Shown in pieces: positions 1-63,788 of a stretch of 64,000 nucleotides of DNA. The notes below the pieces were generated by a model, which made no database searches, was not told the DNA's origin, and saw only the letters and a list, made by a program, of their open reading frames with translations. A program made the translations under genes and the position numbers. This DNA comes from Cyanidioschyzon merolae (lineage: Eukaryota), in the NCBI GenBank assembly GCA_000091205.1, contig AP006488.2, one strand, 5' to 3'. The stretch's first letter is position 1. Each line of letters starts with the position of its first letter.

Positions 1-1967
1 GTTGCACGTGGAGCTTTTGACGTACCCCGTTCACGCTTAGATGCTTGTCCTATCTGGGCGCTCGCATCCGCGTCTTTTGCGTATGTACGAGGGCGAGCGC
101 TATGCGGAATGTCGTGCTCAGCAGCAAACGCAAGTCCAATATGCATGAGCAGGGTCACAGCCGAACGTCTCCGCGCAATTTGCTCTAAAACAATATCCAT
201 TAATCGGTAAAAGATAGCCATACCAGCTTCAGGGTTCGCCAACATCGCCGTGACTACCTCGTCAGCGAGCTCCGCTTCGATCTCTTGCACTACCGAGAGC
301 CCTGGGCCGGCGTACGCATCACCAGCAACATCGGAGCCGCCACCGACGCGAGGTTCGTAGATGCGGTTGCGCTGATCACCACTAGCACCACTACCGGGAT
401 CGCCAGCACCGCCCCTGAAGGCGTCGTCGTCGATGTCATCATCGCCGGTCGGTAGCGTCTGAGCTACCTCTACGAAAAGGTCAAGTCTTCGGTACACGTC
501 CGGCTCTGTCTCCTCGAGGAGCAACCACAAACGCTGAAGAATCTCGTAACGGTGCAGTGCTTCCCGCACGCTCTGTAGGTAGGATACCAACTCCTTGCAG
601 AATCGCTGAAGCGACGCTGCAGTGCCTATCGCAAACAGGAGACTCAAGGCGCGTCGCTGAATGGTCGGGTCCGCATCACGAAGGCACTCGAAAATCGTCT
701 CCTGGTGGGCGGCAACACTCGCCATGCTCCGCTCTGCAGCCTGTGGGAGCAGTTCTAGCGCAACAAGGCGCAAGTTCGGGTCACGGCTACGTAGAAAGTC
801 ACCGAGTATCTGAATCGCGAAAGCCAGGTTTCTCGAAGGCGAGCTCTCTAGCGCCAAAATCGTGCGAACACATTCGAGGACAACTCCATGAGAGCGTTCA
901 CTTGAGCGCGCAACATCGATAAGTGTTCGGTGAAGCTCCTCTGTCGCCGCCGAATCGTGCTGCCCCAGTCGTCGAAGCATCTTCAAGATGCTGCACTGGA
1001 GAAATGGATCGCAGACACCCTGGAATCCGTATTCTGGATTGAAGCCAGCTGTTGCGGTTTCTCGAAGCTGCTGCACCAACAATGCCTGATACTCGTTGGC
1101 TAGCATCCCATACAGGGCACCCGGCGCTACCGTCAGCAGCTCCTCGAGCAGCGCCAGACCGCTAATCAAGACACCGTGGTGGTGTGGCATCTTCAACAGC
1201 TCCAGGGCGGCAGCTCGAAACGAGTCCGCTGGTTCTGGAGTACGTCGACATAAACGGAGCGCCGCAAGCGCTGCTTTCTTCCGTATAAAAGGGTTCCGCG
1301 AGTGCAGGAGACGTTCCACGTCGGGAGCGAGGTCCTGACCGATCTCCGCTGAAGCCAGGTTCGCCACTACGTGTAACGCGAGAGCCACAATCTGGTGGTT
1401 GTCGCTCTGGAGATCCTGTTTCAAAACGTTCACTACGAGAAGAAGAACTTCAGATTGTTCGTCGAGCAGTACCTGCAGCGCCATGTACCCAATGCGTTTG
1501 TCTTTGAACTTGGGACTGGCACAGAGTTTGACGCACTCCATGATACCGAAATCGACACCATAGCCATTTAGGTAGAAAAACACGAGTTTTGCAACGTTGC
1601 GTCGGCGGAAGTAACGATCTTCTTGTCGAGATAGGTCCCGAATCTGAGCGAGCTGCTTTTTGACAAACTCGCGCTCCGCCGAGGCAGTCCTTTGCTTCCG
1701 AAACAGCTTTACAGTGTCCCGTAACGCATACACGATGTACTGCTTTTTGGCCGTAGAGATGGCGTTCTTAGCGCTCCGAACGGCCTTATCGAGCTCCTTC
1801 TGCATTTGATGAACCACTCCCAAGAGTCTTCGCTTCAAGTCCGGTCTGTGGTGCTGCGGAGCGCAGGTCGTGAAACGGCGATACGCAGCGGCAACCGGGT
1901 CGCGTTCAAGTGCGCATGAATGCGAAAGAGGACGGTGACGCCTCATCGATGGGCAGAGACAACCCAT
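1..1967 (-). CDS. AP complex large subunit (gamma/alpha/epsilon-type adaptin), N-terminal ~650 aa; the C-terminal part lies beyond the window start
   Basis: My own translation of the minus strand gives an uninterrupted frame from ~1967 to position 1, with no stop. It contains adaptin N-terminal signatures: NVAKLVFFYLNGYGVDFGIMECVKLCASPKFKDKRIGYMALQVLLDE, then DLQSDNHQIVALALHVVANLASAEIGQDLAPDVERLL...RNPFIRKKAALAALRL, HHGVLISGLALLEEL and DPFLQCSILKMLRRLG. The frame is absent from the ORF track because it runs off the edge. The + ORFs 557..922 and 1096..1338 are its antisense shadows. Start Met is ambiguous among complement ATGs at 1965-67, 1944-46 and 1803-05. Confidence 0.7.
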   Translation of the reverse strand, partial: MGCLCPSMRRHRPLSHSCALERDPVAAAYRRFTTCAPQHHRPDLKRRLLGVVHQMQKELDKAVRSAKNAISTAKKQYIVYALRDTVKLFRKQRTASAEREFVKKQLAQIRDLSRQEDRYFRRRNVAKLVFFYLNGYGVDFGIMECVKLCASPKFKDKRIGYMALQVLLDEQSEVLLLVVNVLKQDLQSDNHQIVALALHVVANLASAEIGQDLAPDVERLLHSRNPFIRKKAALAALRLCRRTPEPADSFRAAALELLKMPHHHGVLISGLALLEELLTVAPGALYGMLANEYQALLVQQLRETATAGFNPEYGFQGVCDPFLQCSILKMLRRLGQHDSAATEELHRTLIDVARSSERSHGVVLECVRTILALESSPSRNLAFAIQILGDFLRSRDPNLRLVALELLPQAAERSMASVAAHQETIFECLRDADPTIQRRALSLLFAIGTAASLQRFCKELVSYLQSVREALHRYEILQRLWLLLEETEPDVYRRLDLFVEVAQTLPTGDDDIDDDAFRGGAGDPGSGASGDQRNRIYEPRVGGGSDVAGDAYAGPGLSVVQEIEAELADEVVTAMLANPEAGMAIFYRLMDIVLEQIARRRSAVTLLMHIGLAFAAEHDIPHSARPRTYAKDADASAQIGQASKRERGTSKAPRA

Positions 1968-2455
1968 CCGATTCTCCTCAGCTCATGTTTCGCATGCTGC
2001 AAGTCAGGTTGGGTGAACAGCTTATGCGTCTAGCAGTTTGTTCCAGTTTGCAGCTTCGATGGTAATGCATGCTTCAAGAAGCTTGTAGAGCTTGCGACTT
2101 TCAGGGGTTGTCTTTCGAATACTGCAAGTCTGGCTGGACAAACCGTATAACCGTCGATCTGGTGTTCCAGTGCATGGTCTCGAATGTCATACGTGCTTCA
2201 AGGAGGCTAGAGTACGGTCGGGAAATTGGTTCAGGACACCTTTATCCTGCAAACTTTTGCGTACAAAGCGCACGCCATAGACGCGATTGCGCCGTATCAG
2301 GCGATGCTTGCTGGCGTATCCTGCTGGTAAACCTACAAGAGATATCGGCTGCAAACGAATCCTGGACCTGAGCAGACATCGAGAAACAGTCATTGCTTCC
2401 GCAGCTTGGGAGAGTACCAACGATGGTATTGGGCCACCTTAGACGGAAGTTTTCG

Positions 2456-2950
2456 CTATTTCAGGCCAGGGATCAGCAAAGCACTGTTCCTCATCGAATT
2501 CAGGGACGCATGTCGCTCGTACATAGCCTCGTAGCACGACGAGTAGCGTACGCGACGCCAGGCAAAGAGCCGGCAACATGCGCCTGCGCACTGGAACGAC
2601 TCGCGATGAAGCTCACCAACTCCATTGTGTGTGTGTGTGTGTGTACGCTCCGTTGCATGCTCCTGCACGGTTTCAACGAGGCCGACGATATCGACAGCGG
2701 AGAGCGCTGTCGCGAACCTGCCGGCAAGCTCCTTACCCGTCAAGTTACCCGCGATCCTCAAAAGCATTCTGTTTGCTTCCTCCTCGGTAAACAGCGGAGG
2801 CAGAGCAAGATGCTTCCAACCCAGCAGCTCTACATCGAAACTGTGACTGCGCTGACGAAGAACCCTCCATGACTCGTCGATAGCAATCCGGAGGCCAGAG
2901 TCCCGGGCTCTCCCGCCGGACGATAAACAGAAACAATTTTTGCGAAACAC
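2456..2950 (-). CDS. hypothetical small protein (164 aa), contains a (TH)n stretch from the (GT)n microsatellite
   Basis: ORF directly downstream of SmD1 on the same strand. The translation looks helical and protein-like (EEEANRMLLRIAGNLTGKELAGRFATALSAVDIVGLVETVQE), but I see no recognisable family. The opposite-strand ORF 2393..2872 looks like a shadow. Confidence 0.2.
   Translation of the reverse strand: MFRKNCFCLSSGGRARDSGLRIAIDESWRVLRQRSHSFDVELLGWKHLALPPLFTEEEANRMLLRIAGNLTGKELAGRFATALSAVDIVGLVETVQEHATERTHTHTHNGVGELHRESFQCAGACCRLFAWRRVRYSSCYEAMYERHASLNSMRNSALLIPGLK
2627..2644. repeat. (GT)9 microsatellite
   Basis: gtgtgtgtgtgtgtgtgt read directly from the sequence. Confidence 0.9.
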
Positions 2951-2960
2951 CCCGGCACAG

Positions 2961-3365
2961 TCAGTGTCTCTCTTTCTGATATCGTGTTCTGGGGCTGAAC
3001 TTGCGCGTTTCTTTCAAAGCGCTCTCCAGGTTCAATGACTCGGGCAGAATGATATATCGAACCGTAGATCCCCGGATTCGATATTCTCTCGCCTTTTGCT
3101 GAGGTTGATTCCGACGACTCATAGCTGAGGCATCCGGTTCACTGAATCGCTCGGTCCAAGGGGCGACGACCTGGGCCGCGTGCGTCTCCAGAGAAGCAGA
3201 GGGGAGCTCGGCTGGAGGTTTTCCAGTAACGGAAGCGTTCAGCAGGTAAACGTTCATCTCATTATCCACTCGCTGTACAGTTCCCGTGGCCTTCGTCCCA
3301 TCTTTCAGCTCAACAGTAACAGTGGCACCTCGAAGGCGAGTTAGGAAATAAAGCAAGGGGGTCAT
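2961..3365 (-). CDS. SMD1: small nuclear ribonucleoprotein Sm D1
   Basis: Sm fold: MTPLLYFLTRLRGATVTVELKDGTKATGTVQRVDNEMNVYLLNASV ... IRGSTVRYIILPESLNLESAL closely parallels the SmD1 consensus (FLMKL..ETVTIELKNGT..G.I..VD..MN.HLK...IRGNNIRYFILPDSL). The track start at 3416 is a TTG, so the first ATG (MTPLL) is used. There is a ~24-aa insertion relative to canonical SmD1; see findings. Confidence 0.65.
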   Translation of the reverse strand: MTPLLYFLTRLRGATVTVELKDGTKATGTVQRVDNEMNVYLLNASVTGKPPAELPSASLETHAAQVVAPWTERFSEPDASAMSRRNQPQQKAREYRIRGSTVRYIILPESLNLESALKETRKFSPRTRYQKERH

Positions 3366-3729
3366 TTGTCGGCTCAGACGCAGGTGCGCAGGTTGCAGCC
3401 TCTCAAAACTCCCCAAAGAGCGTGACCTAGCGAAACCTGTGAGGCTGCAAGTGGCGCTCGAAACGGAAGCTCGAGAGCGCTGCAGGACCCTTTGGGACTC
3501 GGACTGGTCTCACAGAGTGCACTTGGCCTCAACCGCAGCAAACAAAATCGTTCTGTCTGTGAGAACAGCGCTTGATCAAGTTCAGCAACAGAGGGTAAAG
3601 CTCGTGCGGGCTTAACGGCAGTGCCAGCCGCTTTCGTCAACCCACTGCTGTGACAAGCAACTCTTGCAGGAGTATATGCTCAGTAAAACAAAAAAAGTTC
3701 CACAGCCATGGAGGGTACAGAAAACCCAT

Positions 3730-4200
3730 TCATAGAAATCTCCAAGCTTCTTGTGACCGGCCGGCTTCTACTGATTTTGTTTTATCCAGGCATACCTCAT
3801 GCCTGGGAGGCTGCCCCAGAAAGTTGGATTGCGTCAGCTTCGAGGGTCTCGTCTTCAGTACCGCACAGCTCCTTATATTGATGGAGGCGTTGAAGTCTCG
3901 GTTCACAAACCCCATGCTTTGATGGCCTTTGATGGAACGCTTCAGAGGAAGGATTGCCAGAACTCGTCCCCCCTGTGTCAATGTATTCTCGTCGTGGTCC
4001 CGTCGGACAAGCGCCTTATCTCGCCGATCCCCTCACTTCTTCTTCGTCTTCGTCACTGGCTCGTCTTAGCTAGATGGTCGGGGAGGAGACGATTTTTGGC
4101 TTTCTTTCGACAGCCAGCAATGGTGGCCCTGTAGGATCCCCGACTTTCATGTCCATGGCTTTCCCTTGGATTTTTTATTTCTTCAAAATGAACGCACTTC
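3730..4200 (-). mobile_element. decayed 3' portion of a Fanzor/TnpB-like (OMEGA-type RuvC nuclease) element, copy A; carries the RuvC-III fragment VNRDFNASINIRSCAVLKTRP
   Basis: Minus-strand ORF 3730..3981 encodes ...GFVNRDFNASINIRSCAVLKTRPSKLTQSNF, the TnpB/Fanzor RuvC-III (D)RD.NAA.NI hallmark. Upstream frames are broken. Roughly 450 bp (3735-4200) is homologous to 12795-13255 (copy B), and the 3' part is ~75% identical at the nucleotide level to 51930-52020 (copy C). An 8-bp-stem hairpin ccaggcat-acctc-atgcctgg lies at 3786-3806. Confidence 0.55.
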
Positions 4201-4275
4201 TTTATGCCCTAATGTGAGGACGTTTCCGACGCGATTAGGACTTGCGGAAGGCAGAGAACATGTGCTCCGGGTGAG

Positions 4276-4917
4276 TCACCGTTTGCTGAATGCATCAGTG
4301 ATTCGTCCAGTGGAGCGATCATTGCGTGCAACGACGGAAAACCCGCCTTCGATGGGGCTCAACCACGGAGAGCGCGGAGGAATGAAAAGCAGCTCGACAC
4401 CAATAGCATCAGCAACAGCTCCAAAGTAACAGGAGTGGTCAAATGCTATGTTGTCCAACAGAATGAAGTCGCCAGGCATCAGGGGGCAAGTCTTTGATGA
4501 TTCGACAAAGTGGTTGGAGCAGTTGGATAGGCGTTCTCTGCCTGCGAAACTGAGGTCGCCGAATATATCCTCAAAAGCTTGAATAAAAGTATGATATCCT
4601 CGTTCTACTCGAGTTCCATCGTACGTACAACGGGTTTCCTAATCCGCGAATATCCATATACGTTCCGATCGGTTCTCCCGATGGAATTCTTATCAACTGA
4701 AAAAAAACAAACCGACGCCCCTCTGCTTCATACTGATAGTGACGTTCCAAGAACTTTGTTGTCTTTGAGCTTTCAGTAGAAGACGGCCGTGCGTGAAAAC
4801 GGTAATATTTTTGCGACGATATCCAAGTGTTTTCAGAGCCGAACGAACAAGCTTTTGAGAAACAGAAATGCCAGTGGTGGCTACTACCGTCGCTTTTGCT
4901 CTCCGTAAGGTGATCAA
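4276..4917 (-). pseudogene. Tc1/mariner (IS630-Tc1-type) DDE transposase remnant
   Basis: ORF 4276..4479(-) reads FILLDNIAFDHS...GVELLFIPPRSPWLSPIEGGFS. This matches the DDE_3 second-D region (DN..H) and the LPPYSPDLNPIE hallmark, with the third catalytic D replaced by W. ORF 4693..4917(-), ISVSQKLVRSALKTLGYRRK...RLLLKAQRQ, resembles the N-terminal HTH / 'R..fA..h' region. The frames are interrupted and total length is too short for an intact transposase. Confidence 0.5.
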
Positions 4918-6883
4918 CCAGTCTCTTTTTTACGATTTACTGCGAGCAGTCTCTGAAAATATTGGTAGCTGGAATAGAGCACAAGTACTTGTTTCTTTCA
5001 GTGTGCCTCAACCATGTCATTCCAGTTGTGTTGCTGACCTGAGGGACGAATGCAATCCCCCTCGCATTTTTCACTAAAGAATATATCCTATATTCAATTC
5101 ATCTGTGACCTCTACGGTACATTGAATGGTCATTTCGATCTCCTGCTCTACACCGAATAGGGGGTGAATCAAAATTGAGTTGAAAAACGATCATCATGGC
5201 GCATACATTGTTTCGCGATTGTGCGTTGGATTCCATGCCTGCACACGGAAACGTACATGTCACTGAACTTTTTGGACCCAGGATCTCCAGGTTCAGTCCT
5301 GAGCGCTGTCGGCAGAACGCCGCGAACACCAGCTGTGCGACTCCTTCGGCTGGTGCGGCGACCAGTTGATGATTTTTCTTTGGGCTGCAGGACGGATGGG
5401 TCGAAGCTGACGCTGCAGCGAACCAGCATTCTCGGGTACATCCCGTTGGCAGGCCCTGGCATCATCCACGCGTTCCATTTCTTGAAGCGAGGGGATCGAT
5501 GACTCCGAGCCGAGGCTCCTGGGATGCAGGGGAAGCATTGGTGATGCTTCCGCTTTCACTGCACATGATCGATATGCCAGCGAAATGATAAGCACGTCCA
5601 TGAAACTGCTCTGAAGCACTGATATGAACGAAGGTCGCCTCCTATTCTGAAAGGATAAAAACTTTGAAATTTTTGCGCACCGCTATGTGTACAATTCGAG
5701 TCCCTTGCTCGCTACTCGTTGTACGAACGGGACGCGGTTTGCAGCGTAGGTCTGGAGCCTGCATGAATATCAACGCGTCATGATAGCGCGTCCACGCGGA
5801 GACTTAGCCGAATACCAATCCAGGTTTTGAGATCTGGATATCCTTCGATATATATGGTAACCATATGAACTGTGCGATCCGTGGCATCGGGTCGCGAAAA
5901 ATAAATCAATCGAAAAAGAGCCCCGTGGCTACTTCTGGAATGTATCTACGCACGGTCGCTTCGTTTCAGCAGCCACGTTTTCTCGCAACGAGCACAAGTT
6001 CCAGCTTGCACGCCTCAGCTGCGTTCGACTCAGCGCTCTCTGGGAAGCACACACTCGCGTTTTTCGCACGGTCTGCAAGACCCCGAGGCATCCGCGGAAC
6101 CCTGCGGCGTCCGCGAGTGCTCACAGGCGCTCTGAGCTCGGAAGAGCGGATCGTATCCCGGTGAAGAAGATGCCTGCTTCAGGCACGGAACCAAAATTGA
6201 TATTGTGGAGATGATTCCCGCACAAGAAGCACAGCCACTCATGCTGAATGCCCGACAACGGGCGGGGATCATGGAATACGATGCATGTTGACCGTGGACG
6301 AGCGGTTGAACGTAACGCGCCCTTGTGTGCTCCCAGCCGTGAACCCGTCATCGCTCACGTATCGGTATCGATTTCCATAGGTTCCCCGCATAGCCACCGA
6401 ATGCGATCCACTAAACCATTTCATATATCCGAAATGTAGGTCGTCTCGGGTGGCTGAATTCCTTGCGAGCACGGACACGGCACATACAGCATGCACCAAT
6501 ACAACGTTTATGATGCCTGCCCCCTCGAAGACACATAGGAAAGCACATGCTGCACCCTTCAATATAACATGCGTCCTGTTTGCTTCCTCGCAGAGTCAAG
6601 CAGAGCTCATACTGCACGCACCTTCGCGATGTATTCGACGCCAGCGAAAGTTAAGCGTTCGGGCCGTGCCAAACAAGACCAGCAAAGTCATCGCTGCGAG
6701 CAATTTCATAGTGCATTGATGATTACATTTATCATGATGATTCTAAAGAGCGATACACTTGGTACTGCCGCCGATCCGACTCGAGAAATTTCACCCGCCA
6801 CTACAATAGATATTGATCCACAGAGTACATCCTCCAGGAATGCCCGCTAAAGTGCGCAAGTACATGCATCCGAGCTAGCGTCA

Positions 6884-8188
6884 TCACTGCCCATCCCAGT
6901 CGTGCAGCTCCGGTGGGAGCGGCCGATCGACCTCGCTGATCTTTACCGGCATGCCGGTCTGGTAGCTTTGCCGAGCAGCCATGGCAATGACTACCGGCGC
7001 TCGGCCGTCGAAACCGGTGCACTGAATGGGTGTCCCATCGAGCAATGAGCTGCAAAAGGCATCCATTTCCCGAATGAACGAGTCCGTATATCGCTCCATA
7101 AAAAAATGCATAGGCAAGTCGCGCTGAATATGGTGAGCGGTGCTGACAATCGCTGTGTTCGGATAGCTGTTGTTGATAGAAATCGACCCAGCACTACCGA
7201 ACACCTCGCAGCGCTGATCGTATCCGTAGACTGCACTGCGGGAGTTGTCGATCGTGCCGATCGTACGGTTCCGAAACTTCAACATTACCACAGACGTGTC
7301 GACGTCTCCGTACTGAGCAATCTCAGGTGATATGCGGACAGCTCCATACGCGAAGACCTCGTCGACTTCATTGCCAATAAGAAAGCGAGCCATATCAAAA
7401 TCGTGGATTGCGCAGTCCATCCAGATTCCCCCTGAGGTTGCGGAGTAGTGGGCCGGTGGTGGCTCCGGATCACGGCTCACGATGTGGAAAATATGGGTTT
7501 CGCCGATCTCACCGGTCTCGATCGCTTTGCGAACTCGCATGTAGTTGGTATCGAAACGACGATTGAAGCCGACCTGAAGCTTGACGCCAGCCTTGCGGAC
7601 TGCGGTAAGGGCCTCGTCGATCCTGCCCAAATCGATGTCGATCGGTTTCTCGACGAAAATGTGTTTTCCTGCCTGAGCTGCCTCAATCATCTGCCGCGTA
7701 TGCTGCGTACTTGCTGAGCAAATGCATACTGCGTCCACATTCGGGTCGTCCAGGAGCTGGTGATAGTCAAAGTAGGGTTTGCAGCCAGCGGCCAGGGAGC
7801 AGCGCTCCGCGAGCTCCCGGGTGCCGGAGGCCACCCCGCACAAGTTGGCGCGTCGAAGTCTGAAAGCGATGTTCTCAGCGTGGACTTGGCCGATCCGCCC
7901 CGCACCGATGACCGCTACATTCACCTTATCACGAGCAACCACACCTTTCTTAGCGGAAGGTCCAGACGCGGGCGAAGCTGACGCTGGAGCAGGCGACGCC
8001 GACTGCGAGCGCAGCCCGCGCAGTGCCGAACAACCGGAGCGGCGCCGCGGAAACGCTCTCGTCCTCGAACGAAACACATAGCGGTTGTTTTCTCCCGTAA
8101 ACCTCAAGCAAAATCCTGCACATTGAGAGTTGCAGTCGTCCCTGGGAACAATATTCAACGAAACAAACGCCATGAGTACAGAGTTCAT
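6884..8188 (-). CDS. Gfo/Idh/MocA-family NAD(P)-dependent oxidoreductase (myo-inositol 2-dehydrogenase-like), with an ~90-aa Ser/Ala/Pro/Arg-rich N-terminal extension
   Basis: Rossmann N-terminus VNVAVIGAGRIGQVHAENIAF, then the characteristic HIFVEKP and FNRRFD motifs and a C-terminal dimerisation-domain pattern. Start codon uncertain: the extension RSRTRAFPRRRSGCSALRGLRSQSASPAPASASPASGPS could be a targeting peptide or spurious. Confidence 0.75.
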   Translation of the reverse strand: MNSVLMAFVSLNIVPRDDCNSQCAGFCLRFTGENNRYVFRSRTRAFPRRRSGCSALRGLRSQSASPAPASASPASGPSAKKGVVARDKVNVAVIGAGRIGQVHAENIAFRLRRANLCGVASGTRELAERCSLAAGCKPYFDYHQLLDDPNVDAVCICSASTQHTRQMIEAAQAGKHIFVEKPIDIDLGRIDEALTAVRKAGVKLQVGFNRRFDTNYMRVRKAIETGEIGETHIFHIVSRDPEPPPAHYSATSGGIWMDCAIHDFDMARFLIGNEVDEVFAYGAVRISPEIAQYGDVDTSVVMLKFRNRTIGTIDNSRSAVYGYDQRCEVFGSAGSISINNSYPNTAIVSTAHHIQRDLPMHFFMERYTDSFIREMDAFCSSLLDGTPIQCTGFDGRAPVVIAMAARQSYQTGMPVKISEVDRPLPPELHDWDGQ

Positions 8189-9599
8189 GCCTTCGTCGCA
8201 ACTGCGTTCCAGCGCTTGAACGAAATCCGTTGCGCGTGCAGCTGAGACGACGTAGACGCCTTCATCGCCGTGACACCGTCGATTTCGCGGAAGGCGATGT
8301 CGGGGCTGGTGCGTTTTTTCCCATCATGCTCGATACGGAACGATGCAAATCAGAGTTCTATGGAAAATGGATGCTGAGCGGGCGGTTTTTAGTCTGTTGA
8401 ACAAATATTTGGTTCCCAGGAATTTCTGTCGAAGAGAGATATTCCTCTGGTAACCGTGACGCTGGTGGAATCGAAACGCGCAGCAGTCGGTTGTTGCAGG
8501 TAGATGGCGTACAACTGTCGTTCAGGTAATTGTACGCCATGGAGATGCAGGAGAGAAACGTGCATGACGTATTCATGCGTGCATACAGCAGTAGAGACCT
8601 TTCGCTCTTCGGGATAACGGTTTGGAATCGCGTCTACGGGGCCTCGGCGGGCGTTGGACAGGCATCTGCTCCGAGTTCTTGGGTGTCCCAGCGTGCATAC
8701 GATTCTGGAAAAAGCTGGCAACATTCAAGACTTTTGGAATTTTGAGAGGCGGATTCTCAAGTTTTCGTTTATGCGCGACGCGAGCATGAAATGCAGCACG
8801 CATCAGAGCTTTGGCTTCGTCTTTGGGCGCAGTGCATCGGACGCGGCATTCTTCAGAATGCTTGGTTTCGGGGGATTTTCGAGTCAAAAACGGAACCTGA
8901 TGGAGCACCGTGTCGCGCATGATGCGAACAAGGTCGCAGATCCGGGCAGCATATGACGGGCAGAGAACAATTTTCATTATGAGGACCAACACCTTAGAGC
9001 AAGCATCCTTCCCATGCGGAAATGATCCAGGGATATAAGGAAGTGCAGTGCGCCGTTCGGGCGTGACTTGTGGGATTTCCTGAGGAGAAAGCGCTTCCAT
9101 GGAAACTCTAGTGGAGCAAACTTCTGTTCCTGGAGGTGGATTTACTTTAAACCTTTAGTGCCCGGCTACACCAAACCCCGGAATCAACTATATCCTAAAT
9201 CCATTTGGAGAACTGGCTTATGCAGCGTCTGGCTTCTGCCGTCACTCGACCCATAGAAAGAACAAAAGATGCCGCGATGTTCATTCCTTGCCAGGAAATC
9301 CGAGCGAGACGCCAGCGATCGACTCGTGACGCGCACGCCTCGAAAATCGGACAGCAGCGCGTACGCCGCTCAAGGCTCGAAACGTGTCCGTCAAAATATC
9401 GGAACGCTTACAGGTAGTAACGCAAGAACACAGGTACGCGAGCTTCCTAGTCTATTTCGCTGAACAACTTTGTAGACTGCAAGCAGAAGCGCTCAAAATA
9501 AAGGCTACTCGCAAGAATTGAGCGCTTGCTGGCTGAACTCGGACTGGTCTTCCGGAGCCCTGGACAAGCCGCTCTAATCGTCAAACGCCTCGAGTTTAT

Positions 9600-10163: not shown

Positions 10164-12794
10164 GCCCAGCATCTTCATAGAAGACGTGCTCCAGACGCCA
10201 AGATTTTGCGTGGCTCGTATACCAGATGAAAACTTGCCCAAAGCCTAGAACATGGTTGCAAGGAACCCTGGGTCCAACTGGATCATGCAGGATGCGCTTT
10301 CGTAAGGGCATGTGGTAGCCACGGTCACCGCACCGGTATCGATGCACCGCGGCGCATAAACATGGCTCAGATGCAACGGGGCAACGGTTGAAGGCTACCG
10401 GGTAGCGTCAGCTGTGGAGCTGCACGGGTACGTACACAAGCAGAGCAGCGAATCATGTGCAGCGGGAGCTCATTGTCGCAAATTCATCATGGTTTCGTTA
10501 CAGCATGCTTGTAACTAGCGAATACACGACATAGGCGCGCAAAAGTCTTTTATATTACCGTTGTGCGTTCCTGAAACATGAATGCTGTGGCTGTTCAGCG
10601 AGTGCATGCCACTTCGCACGATGAACTCCGCTGTCGTGCTCGAGAATGCATGGCCCATGCCATCAGCGGTGGCACTGAAACGAAACCTGCTGCAACTTCG
10701 ATGGTCGGTCGGCGAAAAGCATGAACCTGTCCCATGGTAATCGGCGTCATGGTTGTAACGCTCTCTGTTCGACACTGGGACACCGCGCCGGACTAGGTTG
10801 CGCAGGTCCATCACATCATCATGAAGCTTCCGCTGGAGACATAGGACTTTGCCATCTCTTCAACTCGTGTCCCGAATGTTTTGTCAAATAAGCCTCTACA
10901 CCCAAGTCGGACGAGAATAGAGCAGATAAACTTTGCCAACTCGGGTGCATACTCCAGAGTTCTCTATTCTTCGAGCCATCACGAGCGCCGTCCTTGGCAA
11001 TGTCTTTCTGCGACTCCTTCTTCCTTATCTCTTATCTCCGGTATTGAAATACGCCAATCCCTCCTGTCCCGCCAGCTTTTTTGTCAGCTGTCGAGGGACG
11101 TTGATCCCAGCGCTAGTCCCGATATTGCCGGTTGCGGGTGTTGACGACACATTTCATGCACTGGCGCAGGTTGAGATCTAGGCTGCGCATGCCATTGCCA
11201 TCTTCTCGTTTGTAAAGCGTGTTGGTGTATCCCTCGCAGCGGTGACACTCTAGTGTGATACGATGTTTCGAGATGTCCACCGCATCTCATGCTCTGGGAG
11301 CCTCCTCGTAGCACGCGAAGCAGTCCAGAGGTCTCGCCTCTATGCCCTAGTCCATTTCCGCACCCATCGCCATCCCCTATAATAACAGGCTTATTATGAG
11401 CGACTTTCTCGGCGAACGCGCTATCCGCTGCGCGCGCAAGAGCACGCTGTTCCATTGAATAGAGAGGATTTCTGGAACGCGATGTTTTCCATGATGAAAC
11501 AAATACCAGAAGGAAAATTCAGACTGGAGACAAAGTCGATCAATTTCGAGCCGTCTGCGCCCCGTGTGTGTCATGCGTTGGCGCGCGCTCTCTCCACTCG
11601 GAGCGATCGTTGCGAGGACTCAAGTCCGAGTTTAGGACCCTTTGCCATTCGAACAGAAGACACGGGAACCTCTCGGAGCATAAACATTGATCGAAATACT
11701 GCAGGTGACGAATGGCGATTCGTCGACGGCCACAGCCCCAGGCAGAAATGTCTTTCGAGTGAAATCCATTGTTTGACATGTGAAGTTCATTGAGTTTTCG
11801 ACACGAGCTTTTGAACGATTCGTCAAGGAACACGCCGAGAGTTCTTCCTCATCAATCCAATGGCGTGAGTTTTTGTTGCGCCTTCGAGTTGCTTTGTGGC
11901 AGCTTGACCGAGTATTTGAAGAATGCGTAATTTGCACGTGTCGCATGCAAGGAAAAGAGAAGAGTGGCGGTTTGTAGGTATGACTCGATTGATGTTATCT
12001 GTTTGTTTACGAATCCCTGATCGCGGGCCTTGTGAATCATGTCGATGACGATGTCGTGACAAATCCCGGCGGCAAAGTATCGAATGAGCCATTCCAAAAA
12101 GTCCACCGCAAATCCGAAACCACTGCGTAGATCCATATGCCACTACTAGTGCAGTTTAGATTCACAGGTTGCACATAAATGAAAATATCGGAATATAATC
12201 GAAAAGCAGGAAGAGAACGAGCTGTTCAGCGTTCCGATTTGATTCTGAAACAGGACTAGTACCAGTGGGTTGTCTGGTTTCCGAAAGCAAACATATACTC
12301 GGGAAGTTTTCGTTGGATTTATCGATCTCACGCCGCAAAAAAGATTCGCGGGGAAACATTGTTGTACGCTTGCAGATAGTGAAACATTTAGTCCGTTATC
12401 AGAAAGCGTTTGGGAGAACGCGGACCAGGACTTTTGTAGGCAACGCTTAGAGATGAGGCTCGCCTTAAAACAGCATGGGCAGCCTATCGAGCTGCTGCTT
12501 CCCTGATGATGTCGTCGGCACCACAGTGAATATCCACGGTGCGCTCATCAGAAGGAGACCTGGTGGAATGAACGAGCGTGGGATCTTGACGCAAGACCCA
12601 CTTGGAGCAAACGGAAACTTGGAGCTGCTGGGTAGAAGCTAATATGCGTTCTTGCTACGGGTAGCTTTCGTCCAACTGCGATCATTTATTTTGATCTGTT
12701 TACCCACAAACCAGTTAAACTTATGCTCTGTGAAACGAACAACATTTCACGACTATGACGTGTACATATTCACCCTTTCACAGACGCTTCCCAG

Positions 12795-13400
12795 CCTCTT
12801 TCGACCGGTCGCCTGCTATCGGTTTTCGTTTCTCCAGGCACTCCTCTAGCCGTAGAGCGTGTACCACAAGTTGGATCGCGTCAGCTCCTCGGGCCTCGTC
12901 TTCAGCACCGATCCTCGTATGATATTGACGGCAGCATTGAAATTCCGTTTCACGAGCTCATTGCGTGTATTGCCTCTGGCTGAACTTGCTAATGCAGGGA
13001 CTGCTAAATCAAGCAATCCTCTCTGCCGCTGCAGTCTCGATATCATCGCGTCAGACATGAAAACCTCTCCTCGCCTATCGCCCGCCTTCTTCATCTCCGT
13101 TACGCGCTCTTATTCGCTCGATGATCGGTGAGACAAGGATTTTTCCGTTTTTTTGCCGGCAGCCGGCGACACCGAGCCTCCAAGATCCTCGACTTCCATG
13201 TCCATAAATTTCCCTTGGATTTCTTATTTTTGAAAACTTACGCACTTCGAAAGCATCTGCCACGAACCAGGAAAAATCATCTGATGACACACACCGAGAG
13301 GTGGAACGCAACTGAGGTGTAAAACGATAACAACCCAATGCGACGTTGCAGATGCCTAGTCGCAGCGGTGACACGGGCGCCCGCGCATTCCTCCCCAAGT
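12795..13400 (-). mobile_element. decayed 3' portion of a Fanzor/TnpB-like element, copy B; RuvC-III fragment VKRNFNAAVNIIRGSVLKTRPEELTRSNL
   Basis: ORF 12846..13094(-) carries the RD.NAA.NI-type motif (here K-R-N-F-N-A-A-V-N-I). The frameshifted upstream ORF 13075..13398(-), ...EVRKFSKIRNPREIYGHGSRGSWRLGVAGCRQK, is homologous at protein and nucleotide level to copy A (KCVHFEEIKNPRESHGHESRGSYRATIAGCRKK). Nucleotide homology to copy A runs over about 12795-13255. Confidence 0.5.
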
Positions 13401-14941: not shown

Positions 14942-16686
14942 CTGCTGTGTGCCACATGGCGTCGAGAACGATGGGTATGGAAAGCAACGCATGGCAGCGT
15001 TCTTGTCAGCTGAAGATGACGTCGCGGGTCACGTTTCTCCAGTCGTAAAGGGCAACCGCTGGATCCAGCGCCTGCCTCACATTCTATGATGAAAGCAGCT
15101 GAAGCGAATGTGGCGTTTCATATGCACTCCCTGGGATCTGATTCGCTTTCTCGATGCACTCATGTTGCAGCTGGAATATGATCCCATGCTTCCAACAGAA
15201 TACCGTTCTCCTCAATGGAGCCGCTTCGCTCCAGAGGTGTGCATTCATTCAGTTCGGCCCAAAATGGTGTGTTCAGCACGACGCCTTCTTGCAGGGACCG
15301 GTGCAGCGCTCTCGTACGAGCATTTAGTTCTGGTTCGGAACACGGTACAGCCAGCTCGATGCGAAACCTGAACGAGTGCATTCAGCCTGCGTTAAAGCAA
15401 GCGCATGCGAATACATATGGACTAGTAATGCGTTAAATGGAGGAGCACTCGCTCTCTTGGACCACCGTGCTGCTTTGAAGAAACAAGACAGGTTCTGTGG
15501 CATCCTTTTCTGACGCATGCACAACGATATTGCCCACAAGTTGCAGCAACCGAAGGTGTATCGGCACCGAAATAGATGGACCCCAGAAGCGATTGGTAAC
15601 GCCCGTGCCAATCGAACCCCGGCGAGACTGAGGCTCACGCAATGGATCTTTGTAGGCATGCTTAGTGATACAGGTCAATGGAGCACCATGACTGACTGGA
15701 AAATGGCAAACAAAACCGTTCGCTTTTTGTGTATGTGGCGCCCAAAATACGCTGGACCAGGGGCCCGTACCATACCAGCGAAATACTCGGGGCGAGAATC
15801 CAATGCCCCCTGTCCTGGGCTGTGATTTGTTCTCATCGAAAGTCTCTCCACGAGCCGACGCTCTCTGAATGGTACGGCAACGCCGTTCTGTCTCCGTGCA
15901 GCGACCGCACCGGCGCTATAGGCGCCATTGCGGATGCTCTCGGCAGGCATTTGGCACACAATAGGACGTTTAAAATGACCAGTATATCCGAGAAGAAGTA
16001 TAGGTAATGTAACTTGGAGGTAGGGGGTTTGATGGATACTTCACCGCGTACTGAAAAAAAATAAGAAAAGAAAAAGCACACAATCGGCGAACGCTGGCCT
16101 AACTTAAAGTTTTGTCAAGTAAGAAAACGAAACTCTCCAGCGTTTGAGCTCAATCTCCGCAGTGCATACAACACACTGCGCACGAACAAACGACTCACGG
16201 GAAATAGCTGGACGCTCCGTATGTATGAGACACTTTCAGATATTGATCGGTGCGTTGAAGCGCGGGTGTGGAGAACGTGCTTCCGCGCATTGCGGCTGAT
16301 GGAATCACATCATCGTGATGCGCTCTCTTGCGACTGCCTCGCCATTTGACGTTCGTTCAGCTTACCGTTCACCTTTTCGTGCGCCAGTTATTGTTTCACC
16401 TTCTTCTTCTTTACATGTTTCAGCGTTCATGCCCGCTCGTGATACGCATATGTGGTCCCGAACGCATCGATGGAAATCGTGCAACATCGATTCCCGCACT
16501 TGTTCTGGGTGCTCTTGTGGAAAGAGCAATCGTGCATCCCCGGCGAGTTACTGAACATCCAGCACCATACGCTGCCGCTCAACGAAGCGAAACCTAGGCC
16601 ATTTTGGTTTCCATTTCATAGCACAGTCTGACGAATGGAAGCTTCTTGCTTCAGTACAGCAGTCAATGTTGGCGAGCCTGGCGCGT

Positions 16687-35292: not shown

Positions 35293-38200
35293 GGCAGCCT
35301 CTTGTGACTCGACGCACGACTGAGGCACAGGAATCTGCAGGGCAAGCTGCGAAAAGCGTCGACGCGATGCAGTAGGTGCCAATAAGCGTTACACCGTCGC
35401 GGTCGAGATGGCGTGCGCGGTTTCGCCCGGTCGGCTAGCGCGCGCTCCGGAACACCTACCAGGCTCGATACTGCTGCAGCCGGTGCTGTTGTCCTCTACA
35501 GAACGTATCGCCGGTCACAGTCCCGGAGTTCCTGGAGCCTTCTGCGCGGTCCAGCGCTCACCGTGCGGGTTACCAGCACCGGGGCACCGCCACAGCCCCA
35601 GGGCGTGTCAGGTTTCGTCGGCGTTGCCAAGGCGCCGCCGCACAGCCGCATCCGCGGCACGGGGCGCAGTGCGTCGACCATTCTGTGGAGAGTTCAGCGC
35701 ACTGCATGCTGTAGTACCGGGAAAAAGACGCATTTTTGTTTCCGAGTGTTCTTCTAACAGGCATTGGATTGAAGGAATTTATTTGTTAAAAAGGAGTTTG
35801 GTGGGCGAATAGGGTGTATGTTCTCGCATCTGAATGAGGAAGGAGCGGAAATGGACGTACAACTTCGTCATACTACAGTCACCAGGTGGATGCGCCATGC
35901 TTCTCGAAGCCCATACTCAGAGCGTCGTGCACCCGACATGGAACGTTCCGAAAGCTATATACACGCTTATCTTTACGAAATCTATTCCAGTCCAAATGCT
36001 CGCACCGTAATGCCACCAAAGATGCAATTCCATGTAAACTTTCGGTAACGTTTCCTCGAGCGGAGATGAAGAGACGCGGATGGATCAAGAAACAGGCACG
36101 CCTCAACAGGAGACCGCACCATTTCGAACAATACACAACAGATTCTGTATAGAAATGCGAATACTTTTCGTGGAAGCGACGGGCGTTCATCTCGCATGAT
36201 GACAAATTCATCGATGACCAATGCGAGACTTGTATAGACGTTGCCGTAGAGGGGCAAGCCGCTGTTTGTGAAGAAGAGTCAAGCGAGCATTCCGACAACG
36301 TCAGTTCTCGCGACGATTCAATACTGTATTCGCCCATGAATCGCAACACAGAGAGCAGCGCTCAGCACCTGATCCTCCGATGAAACACGCCTCGAGTTCC
36401 ATCTTTTCGTGTCCTTCTCCTGGGCAATATCTCTCAGTCCATCACTGATGTAGGTCGGGGGGCGGGGGCGCGGTTTGTAGCTGCTCTTCGTGCTAGCACA
36501 CGCTCGCGGGTTCCATCCGCTTAAAGACGTCGTATAGGATTTCAAACGCCATTTTGATCTACCGGAAGAACAGACGAGTCGTACGTAACCGTGTTACAGA
36601 AGTTCTTCGACAAATCACTCTTTGTGTTCACCAGAACCGAATCCATGCATTGATTCTCCGCTCATTGGCAGCTGAGAAGGGAAAGGTGCGCTCCGGTCTG
36701 GGAGCGGGCATGCGATGGCTAAGGCGACGAAAAAGCACTTGAGAAACAGTGCGTACATTCAAAGAGAAGACGAGTTTCAGGCACGTCGAGCGATCAGTGC
36801 GTCTGAGTGCCAAGAAAGAAAACGTATACAGCGTATCATGAAAAAATCCATGCTACCTAGCCGAGTAAGCGAAAAGGCAAAGATGTCGAAGCCGAAAGAG
36901 ATGCAACCACACGTCAAAGCAGAGAAATAGCTTCCCTAAAAGATGACGAGTTCCGACGGGAACGGAGCACCTTCCGATCGGAAAGATCATTGTTGGACCG
37001 CTGTCAACGCCTCACCAATAAATCATATCCATTGGGAGAATCCTTGAAGGCGTCAGGCACACGACGCCATTAGAGATCGCGTAGCTTCTTACGCGCACAA
37101 GTCTGGCCTATTTCGTCTTGTCTTGGTGCACCGCGCCACGCGACGCTTCGGTGGAGTTCCAGACACGGGCGGCAAGCTCTCGGCATTTCTCTGGATTTTT
37201 TTCGGATCAGACCTTCGTGCGAGAACACAACTTATGCTCCGGATAGAAGGCGCAACACGGCCTGTTCATAGGATTCCGGATGTACTCGCACGCTTCCCAG
37301 AATACCTTGACACATTACCGCGCCACCTCGGCGATCTGAGGATCGACAACGCAGATGCCAGAAAGTACGGAACTACATTCAACATACCAAATTAGGTTCA
37401 GTGTCGAGCGCTTCACGAAACACCTCCCATGCGCATTGTATCCTCACGTCACATACGCGATAAAATACGGATGGATGGACGGGATGCTTAGCGGGTCGAT
37501 GGAGGAAAATGACGAGCGATTGGCGGCAAGAGATCGAGGTGGCAGCGAGTTCGGAACTGATGTGCCAGCGATAGGGAGTATCGCTTCAGGTAATCCAAGC
37601 TCGTCGTGTTGCCGTCAGCCTCGGGTCGGCGGATTTCGTACCGAAAAGGATCGTTGAGACGCAACGCCTACCTTGCTTGCATCTACGGTTCCATGTTTCG
37701 CTGAGCAGATCTTCCCAGAGCAGACCAGAGCAGATTCCATCAGACCGTCGCCTCGAATCCAAGCGCCGTAGCCTCCGAAATCGCCAAGTGGATGTGCTCC
37801 CAGCACCTCAGATGGAAGCCCAGTCGATCACCCGAGACGCTTCTGCTCTGTACTGTATCGCATCTTCAGTGAGCTACAGCTGGTCTGTCTGCGCGCAGCT
37901 ATTCCGCATTCCACTTTAGAGGCTAGGAGCATTGCAGAGCTCGTTCAAGGCTCCTCGTGTACGGAGAAGGAATGGAACGAATTCTACAGTGCCGATGAAG
38001 CTCGCTGGAATACAAATCCGCATGTACTTGTGAGATCGAGGCCCAAGTCAAGCGATGCGACTCGGTCTCAGCCAAAGAAGACATATCAAGAGAGAAACAT
38101 CATGGTGGGCCCGGATCCCCAGGTCTGAGAATATCATGACGGTTGTCGTACCTCTGAATCGAGAGAACGTATCGAGGGATATGCAGGGAATGCAAATGAA

Positions 38201-39993
38201 GCTACTCAGCTTTTCCCGGGCTCGATTTCACCCAGGAATGGGCATGATGAATGCGAGAAGGCACACGAAAACTGGAAAGACGGCGTCAGGGACCAGACCC
38301 CGGTGCTCTGAGCACACTGTCCTGCGGACGAGGATGCTTTGTGTGCTGCATTCAGAGAGAACACGAGCGTCCAAATGGCGTATGTCGACGATCTCTGGCA
38401 GAAATACCTGCGGACGCACGGGAATGGCCAACGATTTTCGGCGTACAGGGGCAAGACGCGAGTATTCAGCGACTTGTTTCATGAACAGGAAAAGAAATAC
38501 GACGGATCGTTCGTCTCGTTGGGTGACGGTACCCTATGGCGCAAGACGTGCTGTGGCGCTCGTGGGCTGCACGCCTGCTCCTCTGACGAGAACGTAGAAC
38601 GAGTGCAGGAAACGATTCTGTACGACGCCTGTCGATGAGTTACGGCCAAAAGAGAAACGTCACGAGCACGAGTGCCCGTTGAAACAGCCAGAAACGAAGC
38701 GCTTGAAACAGAGCACAATGGGCGAGATGGGGTACGGCAGGCTGCCCGAAGTTCGAATGGCAAGGCAATGGAAGGTCAGCGGCCTGCGTTCATGTGCGCA
38801 TACTGGCAACCATGCGAGCCAGCTCCTTCTGCAACGAGACTTCGCCTCGATCAACATCTGGATATGTCTGGTGCCTCGTGCAAGTTCAGTAGCTTTACGT
38901 CGAGCAAAGTTTCCTGGTACTCGTTTCGTACTCGGTGCGTGCATTACGCTGAAACGCAGAAGAATTCCGATGACGTAGAAATACGCAGTCAAAAGGGAGG
39001 GAATCTTATTGCAGCTCGGAGCAACGCACTGGTATACTGCGGTTCAGCAATTCAGCGCCGCTGCACTGTGTATCGATACCCGGAAAACCATTCGCATTGC
39101 CATTAGGTAGGCGGTACTGGATTCCCGTGATTCTCGATTCGTAAGTATAATCAATGTTATTTGACCGAGTTGTTCTGGGAAACGAGCGACAACAGCTGCG
39201 ATCATTGCACAGCAGCTGGCAACCTGGTGTCTGTCTCACACACGGTCCGAACGTTGAACGCCTGGACACGTGCCGGTGCGTCACGCTTGCATTTCAACAA
39301 GTTCGTGGCGAATAGGCGTTTCCATTTCAACATTGTGGCAGCGACGCTGACCCCTGAACCAGAGGACAACGATAAAATCAGGGCATTGCAAAAAGAAGCG
39401 CACGCGGAAACCTGTAGCCACCTCCATAGCAATCCCTGTCGTTCAACGATACGAACGCTGTGTCGAGGACTGCTGGGGGCGCTGCCAAACCACTGGATCT
39501 TCTATTGCGAAGTTCGCACACTCTTGACAAAGATAAACCTCACGGAGCCGTCTGCCGCGCACAGACGACATTTGGCGGAGCGAAAACGCGTCTACTGTGG
39601 GAGGCTCATCAGTGGCTTTGCGAAAGCAACTAGCTTCGCTTCCCTGCGATACGATGCTGGCACTGTGAAGAGGCAAACCGCTTGAAACGGTAGCACCCGG
39701 ACACACAGATCGGGCTTGTAGCTGCGGAACAGCAGCGACTCGTTCGCTCTTCGATGCTTTTGATGGATGCGGAATCACAACATCTGAGGAGGTACCGAGT
39801 TCGTTGAAGAGATTGAGAGAAAGAGAGAAAACGTAGGAGAGCGCAAGGGAGCGGCGCAGTAGCTCGCGCGCTCTGATTGCCGACCTCGCCCTGGGCACGA
39901 TTTATGATTCTTGGATACGAAAGCCGCGGTTTCCGTTGCCTCCAAGGCAACAAACAGTTCCCTGTAATACTATAGACCCATGTAATTCAACTG

Positions 39994-48373: not shown

Positions 48374-49439
48374 GGTGCCCGCTCACCCCTGGTACACAGC
48401 CACAGACACGCTTGCTTCAGCAGCTTCAAAAACCTCCTGGTATCCAAACACGCTCCGCTTCAACCCGACTCACGGCTTCTCTGAGCAAAATCTGTCGAGC
48501 GAACAATAGACAACTCAACCAAAACCACCACAGAGTCGCAGCCCAGAGTCTTTTGTAGACGTGACAAGTCGTCCGTGCGAACTGGCGCTGCCACTACCGC
48601 TGCGTCGCGCGAGGGTTTCCACTACAACCGACTCGTGCAACCTCGAAACAGCCTAAAAACGGAAACTGACCTCTATCGTTGGATACTGAGTATTCCTGCT
48701 TTCACGTCAAGTACTATAGCACCAAACAGGAACCTACTCGAAACGTGTATACCCGCTCATATGGTCCATGCGTTCAGGGTAGTCACGCGCTGAGCGTCTA
48801 TCGAACGCGCGCTGTCTCGAGGCGCTGTTCATACATCCCCGCGTGACGCGACCCTGCGGGCGCTGATGCGCAAGCGCGCGCTGCAATGGACATCGCTGCA
48901 TCAAGATCGATGGTGCAATCCTGATTCGATTGCGATGACAAAACGTTTCCATGGAGCAGGGATCCCTGGTTTCGGGAAGGATGGGTGGTGGCGTTCGGGA
49001 AAGCGTCCATCATGATGTTACCTCCAGGTTCCTTTTGGATATACTGGCCGTTTCGTATGGTCTATCGTTTGCCGAGTACTTGATGTGAGCGCTCGCCTCG
49101 GGGCTTGTATCGCTGGAGCAGATATATCATGGGGATAGAACGGCTTTGGCACGCCATTGAGGGCGTCGGATCGAGGAACGCTTCACCTGATACGTAGTCG
49201 GAGTATATGATCAATCTGCGAGCCTGCAAGCTGCGCTGGCAGACGGACTGCCTGCGGCAGTTTGACGCGATATACTAGGAGTCCACTGCGACCAGATCGA
49301 CGCCCAGATGGAGCCTAACTGCCCCTGATCCCAGAATGAATTGCGTTTTGCGGACGCATTGTTCAGGTCTCGCCACAGCACCTGCCACTGGAGGAAGCAT
49401 GAAGCACGAGCTTGGTAGATTCGTCCGTCTCGCGGGACC

Positions 49440-63009: not shown

Positions 63010-63480
63010 CTCGAATACAAGTAAAGAGAGATCGGGCGCAGAGCTGATCACCGAAGAGACCTGCACATACAAACAGGCGCATTTGAATACGTCTTTCATC
63101 GGTAGGTGCACGGTGCACTGTTCGGGAGCGCACACGCTGGAAGCAAGCTCGCTTCTCGAAGGCGTGTAGCGCGATCTCGGAATACCGCATATCGATACGC
63201 ATGTTTGCGTGGAGGAGGACGCGTGCGCGAACCCAGACGCCGAAGCGAACCTTGGGGTCTGTTCGCAGTGGCGGCGAAACTAGTCGTGGCGGGGAATGGT
63301 CTCCGACTGCTTCATGTTACGCTCACGTATCCCCTGCTTGTAGAACGCCGGTCTACTGTTTCTCTAGCCCTGTTGTCAGCAGTCGAAGATGACGGATGCT
63401 CGTGTTCATTCCCCTGCTTTCGCTGCATACAGCCGTTGTCGACGCATATGGTGCTCAGGCGGACGTTGCTATGTACGCAT

Positions 63481-63788
63481 CGCTTGCCATGTTCTTCGTG
63501 TTTGTATATAAGTCAGTGCGTTTGTTGCAGCGTTGACACCTGCATGTGGTCAGGTGTCGCTTGCCATGTTCTTCGTGTTTGTATATAAGTCAGTGCGTTT
63601 GTTGCAGCGTTGACACCTGCATGTGGTCAGGTGTCGCTTGCCATGTTCTTCGTGTTTGTATATAAGTCAGTGCGTTTGTTGCAGCGTTGACACCTGCATG
63701 TGGTCAGGTGTCGCTTGCCATGTTCTTCGTGTTTGTATATAAGTCAGTGCGTTTGTTGCAGCGGTGACACCTGCATGTGGTCAGGTGT
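63481..63788. repeat. 77-bp tandem repeat x4 (cgcttgccatgttcttcgtgtttgtatataagtcagtgcgtttgttgcagcgttgacacctgcatgtggtcaggtgt), each unit carrying TGTATATAAG
   Basis: Units at 63481, 63558, 63635 and 63712 are near-identical (unit 4 has cgg for cgt). A partial degenerate copy sits upstream. The array lies 470 bp downstream of the clathrin stop. Confidence 0.9.

Follow-up and report, generated by a model that had tools for sequence, protein, structure and literature searches.

Introduction

Fanzor1 genes are established constituents of autonomous Mariner/Tc1 elements (Bao & Jurka 2013, PMC3627910; Jiang et al. 2023, PMC10530073). Two Mariner-type transposons, PUl-1 from Pythium ultimum and PGv-1 from Phaeocystis globosa virus, encode both a transposase and a Fanzor1 protein (Bao & Jurka 2013, PMC3627910), and PUl-1 measures 3620 bp, has repeats of 24 bp and shows a TA duplication (PMC3627910).

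One Fanzor1 family, CMe-1A, has been reported for Cyanidioschyzon merolae (Bao & Jurka 2013, PMC3627910). It comprises about 150 copies, each approximately 80% identical to a 3169-bp consensus, and has a 734-aa Fanzor1 protein (PMC3627910). The family was published without inverted repeats or a transposase, with its target duplication undetermined and its classification unknown, and its 5′ 635 bp are common to TE-N2_CMe (PMC3627910). A separate study of C. merolae described eight "transposase-related" class II elements, closest to bacterial transposases, and a WSV486-like repeat of 3.2 kb that is present in 253 copies (Nozaki et al. 2007, PMC1955436). This repeat is probably the CMe-1A Fanzor family, since a white spot syndrome virus Fanzor element is listed by Bao & Jurka (PMC3627910). 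At 150–253 copies and about 5% of the genome, CMe-1A is the main interspersed repeat of a model alga with a minimal genome. In a literature search that had Repbase outside its scope, no paper was found linking a C. merolae mariner/DDE transposase to CMe-1A.

We analyzed a 64,000-nucleotide stretch of chromosome 6 of C. merolae 10D (hereafter the window), in which a transposase pseudogene lies beside a Fanzor1 remnant. The segment 5192..3675 is very probably a dead copy of an old, dispersed, non-autonomous C. merolae DNA-transposon family that derives from an ancestor carrying both a transposase and Fanzor1.

Results

Six ORFs of the window match chromosome 6 proteins of C. merolae 10D exactly (BAM79464 to BAM79477; tags including CMF088C and CMF092C). 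The window has a G+C content of about 54% and contains long uninterrupted ORFs for DXS, clathrin heavy chain, TBP and casein kinase. Two minus-strand genes, an Sm-like one at 2961-3416 and one for myo-inositol dehydrogenase at 6884-8188, border the unannotated interval that holds the whole dead element (approximately 5192..3675, minus strand; Table 1). Hot-spring metagenome contigs (L002-L005, L008 and L009) are 99% identical to this region, with at most 1–2 gaps over 2.4 kb; because they have the same sequence, the damage to the transposase frame is real and not an assembly artefact. In the adjacent Sm-like ORF, an LSM profile of 66 positions is matched over residues 24–123, so that some 35 residues are inserted; they could be a lineage-specific insert or, in a genome with very few introns, an unspliced intron.

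Table 1. Parts of the dead element on chromosome 6, in window coordinates
Feature	Position	Strand	Remarks
Degenerate 5′ TIR match	5164..5192	-	GATCGTTTTTCAACTCAATTTTGATTCAC; homology to paralogs begins here; repeat matrix 7.8 bits in the window copy
Transposase pseudogene, Tc1/mariner/IS630-type (DDE_3, DD34E)	4276..5122	-	about 280 codons across three frames; Pfam and tblastn
Spacer, transposase stop to Fanzor start	4157..4275	-	last ~50 nt match the CMe-1A Fanzor 5′ leader (consensus ~853-905)
Fanzor1 N-terminal remnant, family CMe-1A	3987..4156	-	consensus 906 to ~1062
Fanzor1 C-terminal remnant, family CMe-1A	3730..3974	-	consensus ~2838-3110; stop 3732-3730
3′ untranslated end of the element	3675..3729	-	degenerate 3′ TIR match 3675-3703; plus strand TATGCTCAGTAAAACAAAAAAAGTTCCAC, starts with TA

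The two peptides on which an earlier reading of this DNA (the sequence-only reading) had based its claim of a Tc1/mariner-type DDE pseudogene were both found, in one minus-strand frame (FILLDNIAFDHS, 4467..4432; LLFIPPRSPWLSPIEGGFS, 4392..4336). A 120-aa piece translated from 4638..4279 matches Pfam DDE_3 (E = 5.5e-7, 30.0 bits, cut-off 28.6), which upholds the claim. The second catalytic D is kept in LLDN (codon 4455-4453). The statement of that reading that the third catalytic D had been replaced by W was mistaken. The motif P-P-Y-x-P-W-F-N-P-x-E is invariant, W included, in 11 of 11 intact relatives, with PPYSPWFNPIE as the family norm, and the third catalytic residue is the E, retained here in SPIE (4350-4348). 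Thirty-four residues separate the D of LLDN from this E, giving DD34E spacing. The codon for the first catalytic D is also kept (SVD, 4700..4692; D, 4694-4692), in a separate frame, so the catalytic triad is not expressible. A candidate interpretation in which the first D is replaced by Q (FFQ...) in all copies, as the mark of a dead master element, was rejected as an out-of-frame reading: the D is present in SVD(E/K), in another frame than FFQ, with copy L032 in one frame throughout.

The interval 4276-4917, to which the sequence-only reading had confined the pseudogene, lies inside it but covers only part of the gene. A tblastn search with the reconstructed family protein (described below) aligned residues 1–278 over 5122..4279, extending the pseudogene from an ATG at 5122 to a stop at 4278-4276. 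The HTH-like piece noted upstream of the DDE region (4917..4810) aligns to the second helix-turn-helix (HTH2) of intact relatives, though its match to Pfam alone is weak (HTH_33, E = 0.037), and the segment 5122..4810 aligns to both regions of the bipartite N-terminal helix-turn-helix in the reconstructed protein. The gene is interrupted by at least two in-frame stops (5101-5099, at codon 8, and 4939-4937, after CSQ) and at least three frameshifts; as these break the transposase frame, the window copy is inert today. An intact transposase frame is kept in none (0/11) of the aligned C. merolae-type copies, and the window copy is likewise broken.

A word-indexed protein search returned a first relative (P0001) on a 1-kb Logan contig, the DNA of which aligns through the transposase part into the Fanzor tail. 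Scanning of JGI metagenome contigs with two-sequence alignment yielded 29 loci, which were sorted by eye, from their flanks and identity, into 12 distinct places, one of them the locus in the window. The transposase part is present at 11 other distinct loci with 67–71% nucleotide identity (5188..4162 plus the tail aligned), and 10 of these 11 also carry the CMe-1A 3′ tail; composite copies elsewhere, which the sequence-only reading had named as a check on its proposal, are therefore found. The remaining locus (L024/L025) is truncated by another CMe-1A/TE-N2 insertion. In nearly all of these places, the transposase part is followed within ~80–130 nt by CMe-1A 2737/2840-3090. The flanking genes at six loci fall into clusters of at least 90% identity with C. 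merolae 10D proteins. Two of the six cluster in this way with chromosome 12, one each with chromosomes 6 and 19, and the other two with records of 866,983 and 1,253,087 nt. Because these flanking genes map to several chromosomes, the copies are dispersed paralogous insertions in one genome lineage. One Logan contig (L001) was considered as an orthologue from another species and rejected; its translation is, by eye, nearly identical to that of L011, which makes it a paralogous C. merolae-type locus.

The copies fall into two deletion classes, given here in CMe-1A consensus positions. Class i (the window copy, L022, L026 and L030) joins ~853-1017/1070 to 2807/2840-3090, a deletion like that in a second derivative within the window (copy B, below), and class ii (L001, L011, L013, L017, L020, L029, L032 and L035) joins ~853-897/909 to 2737-3090. 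Transposase, Fanzor leader and 3′ end are preserved in both classes, the Fanzor 3′ end over at least 290 nt. Most of the Fanzor gene was thus lost by internal deletion at least twice, leaving short derivatives of ~1.4–1.5 kb at 12 or more loci. Since two independent deletion classes retain the same three parts, they point back to a full-length ancestor with two genes. At one paralogous locus, a near-full CMe-1A (671-3092) lies ~1 kb downstream of a short transposase-bearing copy in the same orientation (L030 4387-6800, L027 4365-6411).

The majority sequence of 11 copies gave a family consensus of 1597 nt with an almost open frame, to which the window copy has 80% DNA identity. Three frame corrections to this consensus of only 11 copies yielded a reconstructed transposase of 278 aa. 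An exhaustive HMMER search and a second word-indexed search revealed hundreds of 290–305-aa proteins with HTH_23, HTH_Tnp_Tc3_2 and DDE_3 domains, many of them on ~3.1–3.9-kb contigs. The reconstructed protein is 41–46% identical, over its full length, to intact metagenomic relatives (295–302 aa), which match DDE_3 with E of 1e-22 to 1e-27.

Three of these relatives were examined: L037 (3356 nt), L038 (3361 nt) and L039 (inside a 493,685-nt contig). In all three (3/3), an ORF of 586–636 aa comes directly after the transposase on the same strand; it is 29–32% identical to the CMe-1 Fanzor over ~670 residues (E of 1e-79 to 1e-98) and carries VDEFRTS and a second motif. We checked whether this downstream ORF might be unrelated to the CMe-1 Fanzor and found it homologous in each of the three. 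The spacer between the genes is 103 nt in L037 and 51 nt in L038, with a small overlap in L039, compared with ~119 nt in the window copy. Each pair is bounded by TIRs of 29–30 nt (TACA(C/G)T...AATAATGTTACA(C/G)); L037 and L038 are cleanly TA-flanked, and L039 ends in TTATA...TATAA, compatible with TA. Intact composite copies, also sought by the sequence-only reading, are accordingly represented by these three metagenomic relatives with a full Fanzor1, but no copy with both genes intact, or with both full-length, was found in the C. merolae-type sequence scanned. The L039 element (JGI 3300071517, Ga0620987_00111, 5946-8873) has an apparently intact transposase and Fanzor1 and 30-nt TIRs; its neighbors include thymidylate synthase, a cellulase and an M16 peptidase, and its host may be a protist or a giant virus.

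The boundaries of the element were placed from paralog alignments. At the 5′ side, the boundary lies ~13 nt upstream of TCAACTCAATTTTG (window ~5192), and at the 3′ side it ends ...TTTTACTGA(GCA)TA (window 3680-3675). A repeat matrix derived from the three relatives' six TIR arms was run over both strands of the family consensus, where its top score (16.6 bits; reached by 1/300 shuffles) falls precisely at the 5′ terminus. In the window copy, the top score (13.7 bits; 4/300 shuffles) belongs to an inverted match that coincides with the 3′ terminus (outer end 3675). With a matrix from three relatives, degenerate matches to the repeat motif are thus present at both ends of the window copy. When the two family ends of C. 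merolae are compared with each other by plain local alignment, the inverted similarity is not significant (224/500 shuffles reach the score), and an inverted-repeat search of 3300-5700 gave 44 short pairs, none convincing. The sequence-only reading had expected repeats near ~3700 and ~4950; the 5′ end lies at ~5192, 240 nt further out. Nothing is found near ~4950 because that position falls inside the transposase gene. Of the TA duplication that the sequence-only reading also proposed to look for, the window copy has TA at the 3′ flank (3675-3676) but GA at the 5′ flank (5192-5191); about half of the paralogs have TA at the 3′ flank.

To identify the Fanzor portion, we used the CMe-1A consensus from supplementary file 2 of Bao & Jurka 2013 (PMC3627910). 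Window 4199-4093 corresponds to consensus 869-969 (72% identity) and window 3915-3804 to consensus 2901-3012 (79% identity), and local alignment extends these matches to 4199..3987 (869-1062) and 3974..3740 (2838-3076). The N-terminal remnant holds the leader and ~55 codons, starting MDMKVGDP at 4156 where the CMe-1A consensus has MEKEVEDP. The C-terminal remnant holds the last ~80 codons, with the RuvC-III motif (N-R-D-x-N-A-A/S-x-N-I) as FVNRDFNASINI at 3909..3874. Between them, ~1.8 kb (consensus ~1063-2837) is deleted, and RuvC I, RuvC II and the zinc finger, removed by this deletion, are absent from the window Fanzor copy. As both N- and C-terminal pieces are present, the remnant is an internally deleted CMe-1A and not a simple C-terminal fragment. 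The "Fanzor fragment 3730-4200" of the sequence-only reading is therefore Fanzor1-derived and on the same strand as the transposase, as stated, but consists of two CMe-1A pieces joined across a deletion. A candidate assignment of 4101-4187 to the Fanzor RuvC-II (VDEFRTS) region was rejected, as the published CMe-1 protein shows it to be the N-terminus (MEKEVEDPGG). A profile of CMe-1 and the three relatives matched PDB 9cf0 (Parasitella parasitica Fanzor 1) with E = 4.4e-11, and one relative's Fanzor matched Pfam Cas12f1-like_TNB with E = 5.6e-5; single-sequence PDB searches with the CMe-1 Fanzor and with P0103 gave no match, and profiles were needed.

CMe-1A and the transposase-bearing family have in common the Fanzor gene with its leader and 3′ end (CMe-1A consensus ~853-3125). 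Upstream of it, CMe-1A has a ~850-bp non-coding 5′ module (TE-N2_CMe-like) where the transposase-bearing family has the transposase gene. Copy B (12722-13329, minus) is a short CMe-1A derivative of the same deletion class as the element described here (copy A), without the transposase; its upstream part is CMe-1A 786-868, where copy A has the transposase gene. Because copy B joins the deleted Fanzor module to a CMe-1A-type 5′ part, 5′ modules have been exchanged between the two families.

The 5′ end of CMe-1A/TE-N2_CMe (consensus 8-30, AAAACGTTTACATTGACCATGGA) and the family's 3′ subterminal sequence (window 3690-3715 region; ~3096-3125 in the published consensus) are similar in inverted orientation, with a score reached by 0/500 shuffles. 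CMe-1A may on this ground have inverted repeats after all. The published CMe-1A consensus extends ~45 nt beyond the end of likeness among the copies aligned here.

Discussion

The proposal of the sequence-only reading, that the two adjacent fragments reflect a degraded composite Tc1/mariner-Fanzor transposon, is supported by the dispersed composite loci, the intact two-gene relatives and the matrix matches at the termini. From the deletion derivatives together with the metagenomic relatives we infer a two-gene ancestor of the C. merolae family. It would have been an IS630/Tc1/mariner-superfamily element of ~3.3 kb that moved by cut and paste, made up of a short TIR, a DD34E transposase of ~300 aa, a spacer of ~100 nt, the Fanzor1 gene and a second TIR. 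By analogy with characterized elements, the transposase would bind the inverted repeats and move the unit into TA sites by DDE catalysis, Fanzor1 would travel as a passenger RNA-guided nuclease (TnpB-like), and the short deletion derivatives would be mobilized in trans. The guide RNA of a Fanzor is normally encoded at the 3′ end of the element. On a more speculative reading, the Fanzor 3′ end of at least 290 nt kept by the short copies could represent a guide-RNA region and right end that are needed, such that a Fanzor supplied in trans promotes retention or homing of short elements.

Three other explanations for the junction were weighed. An independent IS630/Tc1-like transposon and CMe-1A could have been joined once, by recombination or nested insertion, and the resulting secondary chimera then multiplied. 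Copy B and the published CMe-1A do have the Fanzor/3′ module with a different 5′ module, demonstrating that module exchange occurs, and a full two-gene copy is lacking from the C. merolae-type contigs scanned. We nevertheless consider this origin unlikely: the intact relatives have exactly this gene order and spacing, with both proteins homologous to the C. merolae pair, their inverted repeat is recognizable at the 5′ terminus of the C. merolae family, and each of the two independent deletion classes goes back to an arrangement of transposase, Fanzor leader and Fanzor gene.

Horizontal acquisition of a bacterial insertion sequence of the IS630 family, one unrelated to the eukaryotic Tc1/mariner-Fanzor elements, would account for the weak BLASTX matches of Nozaki et al. 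2007 (PMC1955436), all to bacterial transposases, and bacterial IS630 also has DDE_3. Such an origin is highly improbable given that the nearest intact relatives (those at 41–46% identity) are paired with Fanzor1 in ~3-kb TIR elements, two of them cleanly TA-flanked, and that in C. merolae the copies are joined physically to a Fanzor1 element. Least probable of all is that unrelated transposase and Fanzor relics came to lie side by side at one locus by chance. The homology between the Fanzor-type parts of copies A and B ends at 4200/13248, before the DDE part, as coincidental neighbors might show; the junction is, however, alignable in the other tail-bearing loci on several chromosomes, and this repeated sharing refutes chance.

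The inferred C. merolae ancestor resembles PUl-1 in order (TA, inverted repeat, ~300-aa transposase, Fanzor1, inverted repeat) and in size class. The two lineages are distant: in the catalytic core, the 308-aa PUl-1 transposase and the reconstructed C. merolae protein share 28% identity. Over the full length, the PUl-1 transposase is 23–26% identical to the intact relatives, and it reads PPYSPQLNPVE where the C. merolae family has PPYSPWFNPIE. In contrast to PUl-1 and PGv-1, every C. merolae copy is decayed and lacks most of the Fanzor gene. They are of similar age to CMe-1A, the copies of which are ~80% identical to their own consensus, close to the value for the window copy against its family consensus. 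With the DD34E transposons Sleeping Beauty, Tc1 and Mos1, the family shares paired N-terminal helix-turn-helix domains, the DDE_3 fold and the 34 residues between the second D and E, and the intact relatives also share the TA target and CA(C/G)T-type repeat ends. It differs from them in its short protein (~300 aa), its own PPYSPWFNPIE motif and the weak structural match of the profile of intact relatives against PDB (Sleeping Beauty SB100X, E = 1e-3; Mos1, E = 8e-3).

As Fanzor1 genes in Tc1/mariner transposons are established, the kind of element is already known, and the general picture of Fanzor biology is unchanged. What is new is local: the locus and its paralogs link CMe-1A with a particular DD34E transposase lineage and, putatively, with inverted repeats. 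Whether the entire CMe-1A family is of Tc1/mariner type, moved in trans by a now-extinct DD34E transposase, is a tentative extension that we regard as rather doubtful. A reconstructable ancestor and the 5′ module swaps are useful for annotating cyanidiophyte genomes, and the locus is useful for asking how Fanzor genes persist once the transposase of their carrier is dead.

Other repeats in the window

A near-complete CMe-1A element is present at 48933-52013 (plus strand; consensus 1-2992, 79–86% identity). Its Fanzor1 gene keeps an open frame of 463 codons (50343-51734), with a frameshift just before VDEFRTS, near 51700-51740. Isolated CMe-1A fragments lie at 15847-16024 (minus; consensus 84-257, the TE-N2_CMe-like part, 81%) and at 38571-38644 (plus; consensus 2646-2719, 73%). 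Beside the TBP gene, the N-terminus of the reconstructed transposase (first helix-turn-helix) has a weak tblastn match at 35806-35934 (plus, E = 0.004), which may be a further, very old transposase remnant or may be due to chance. Near the end of the window, a tandem array with a 77-nt unit occupies 63403-63787 and comprises ~5 units, the last ones 99–100% identical.
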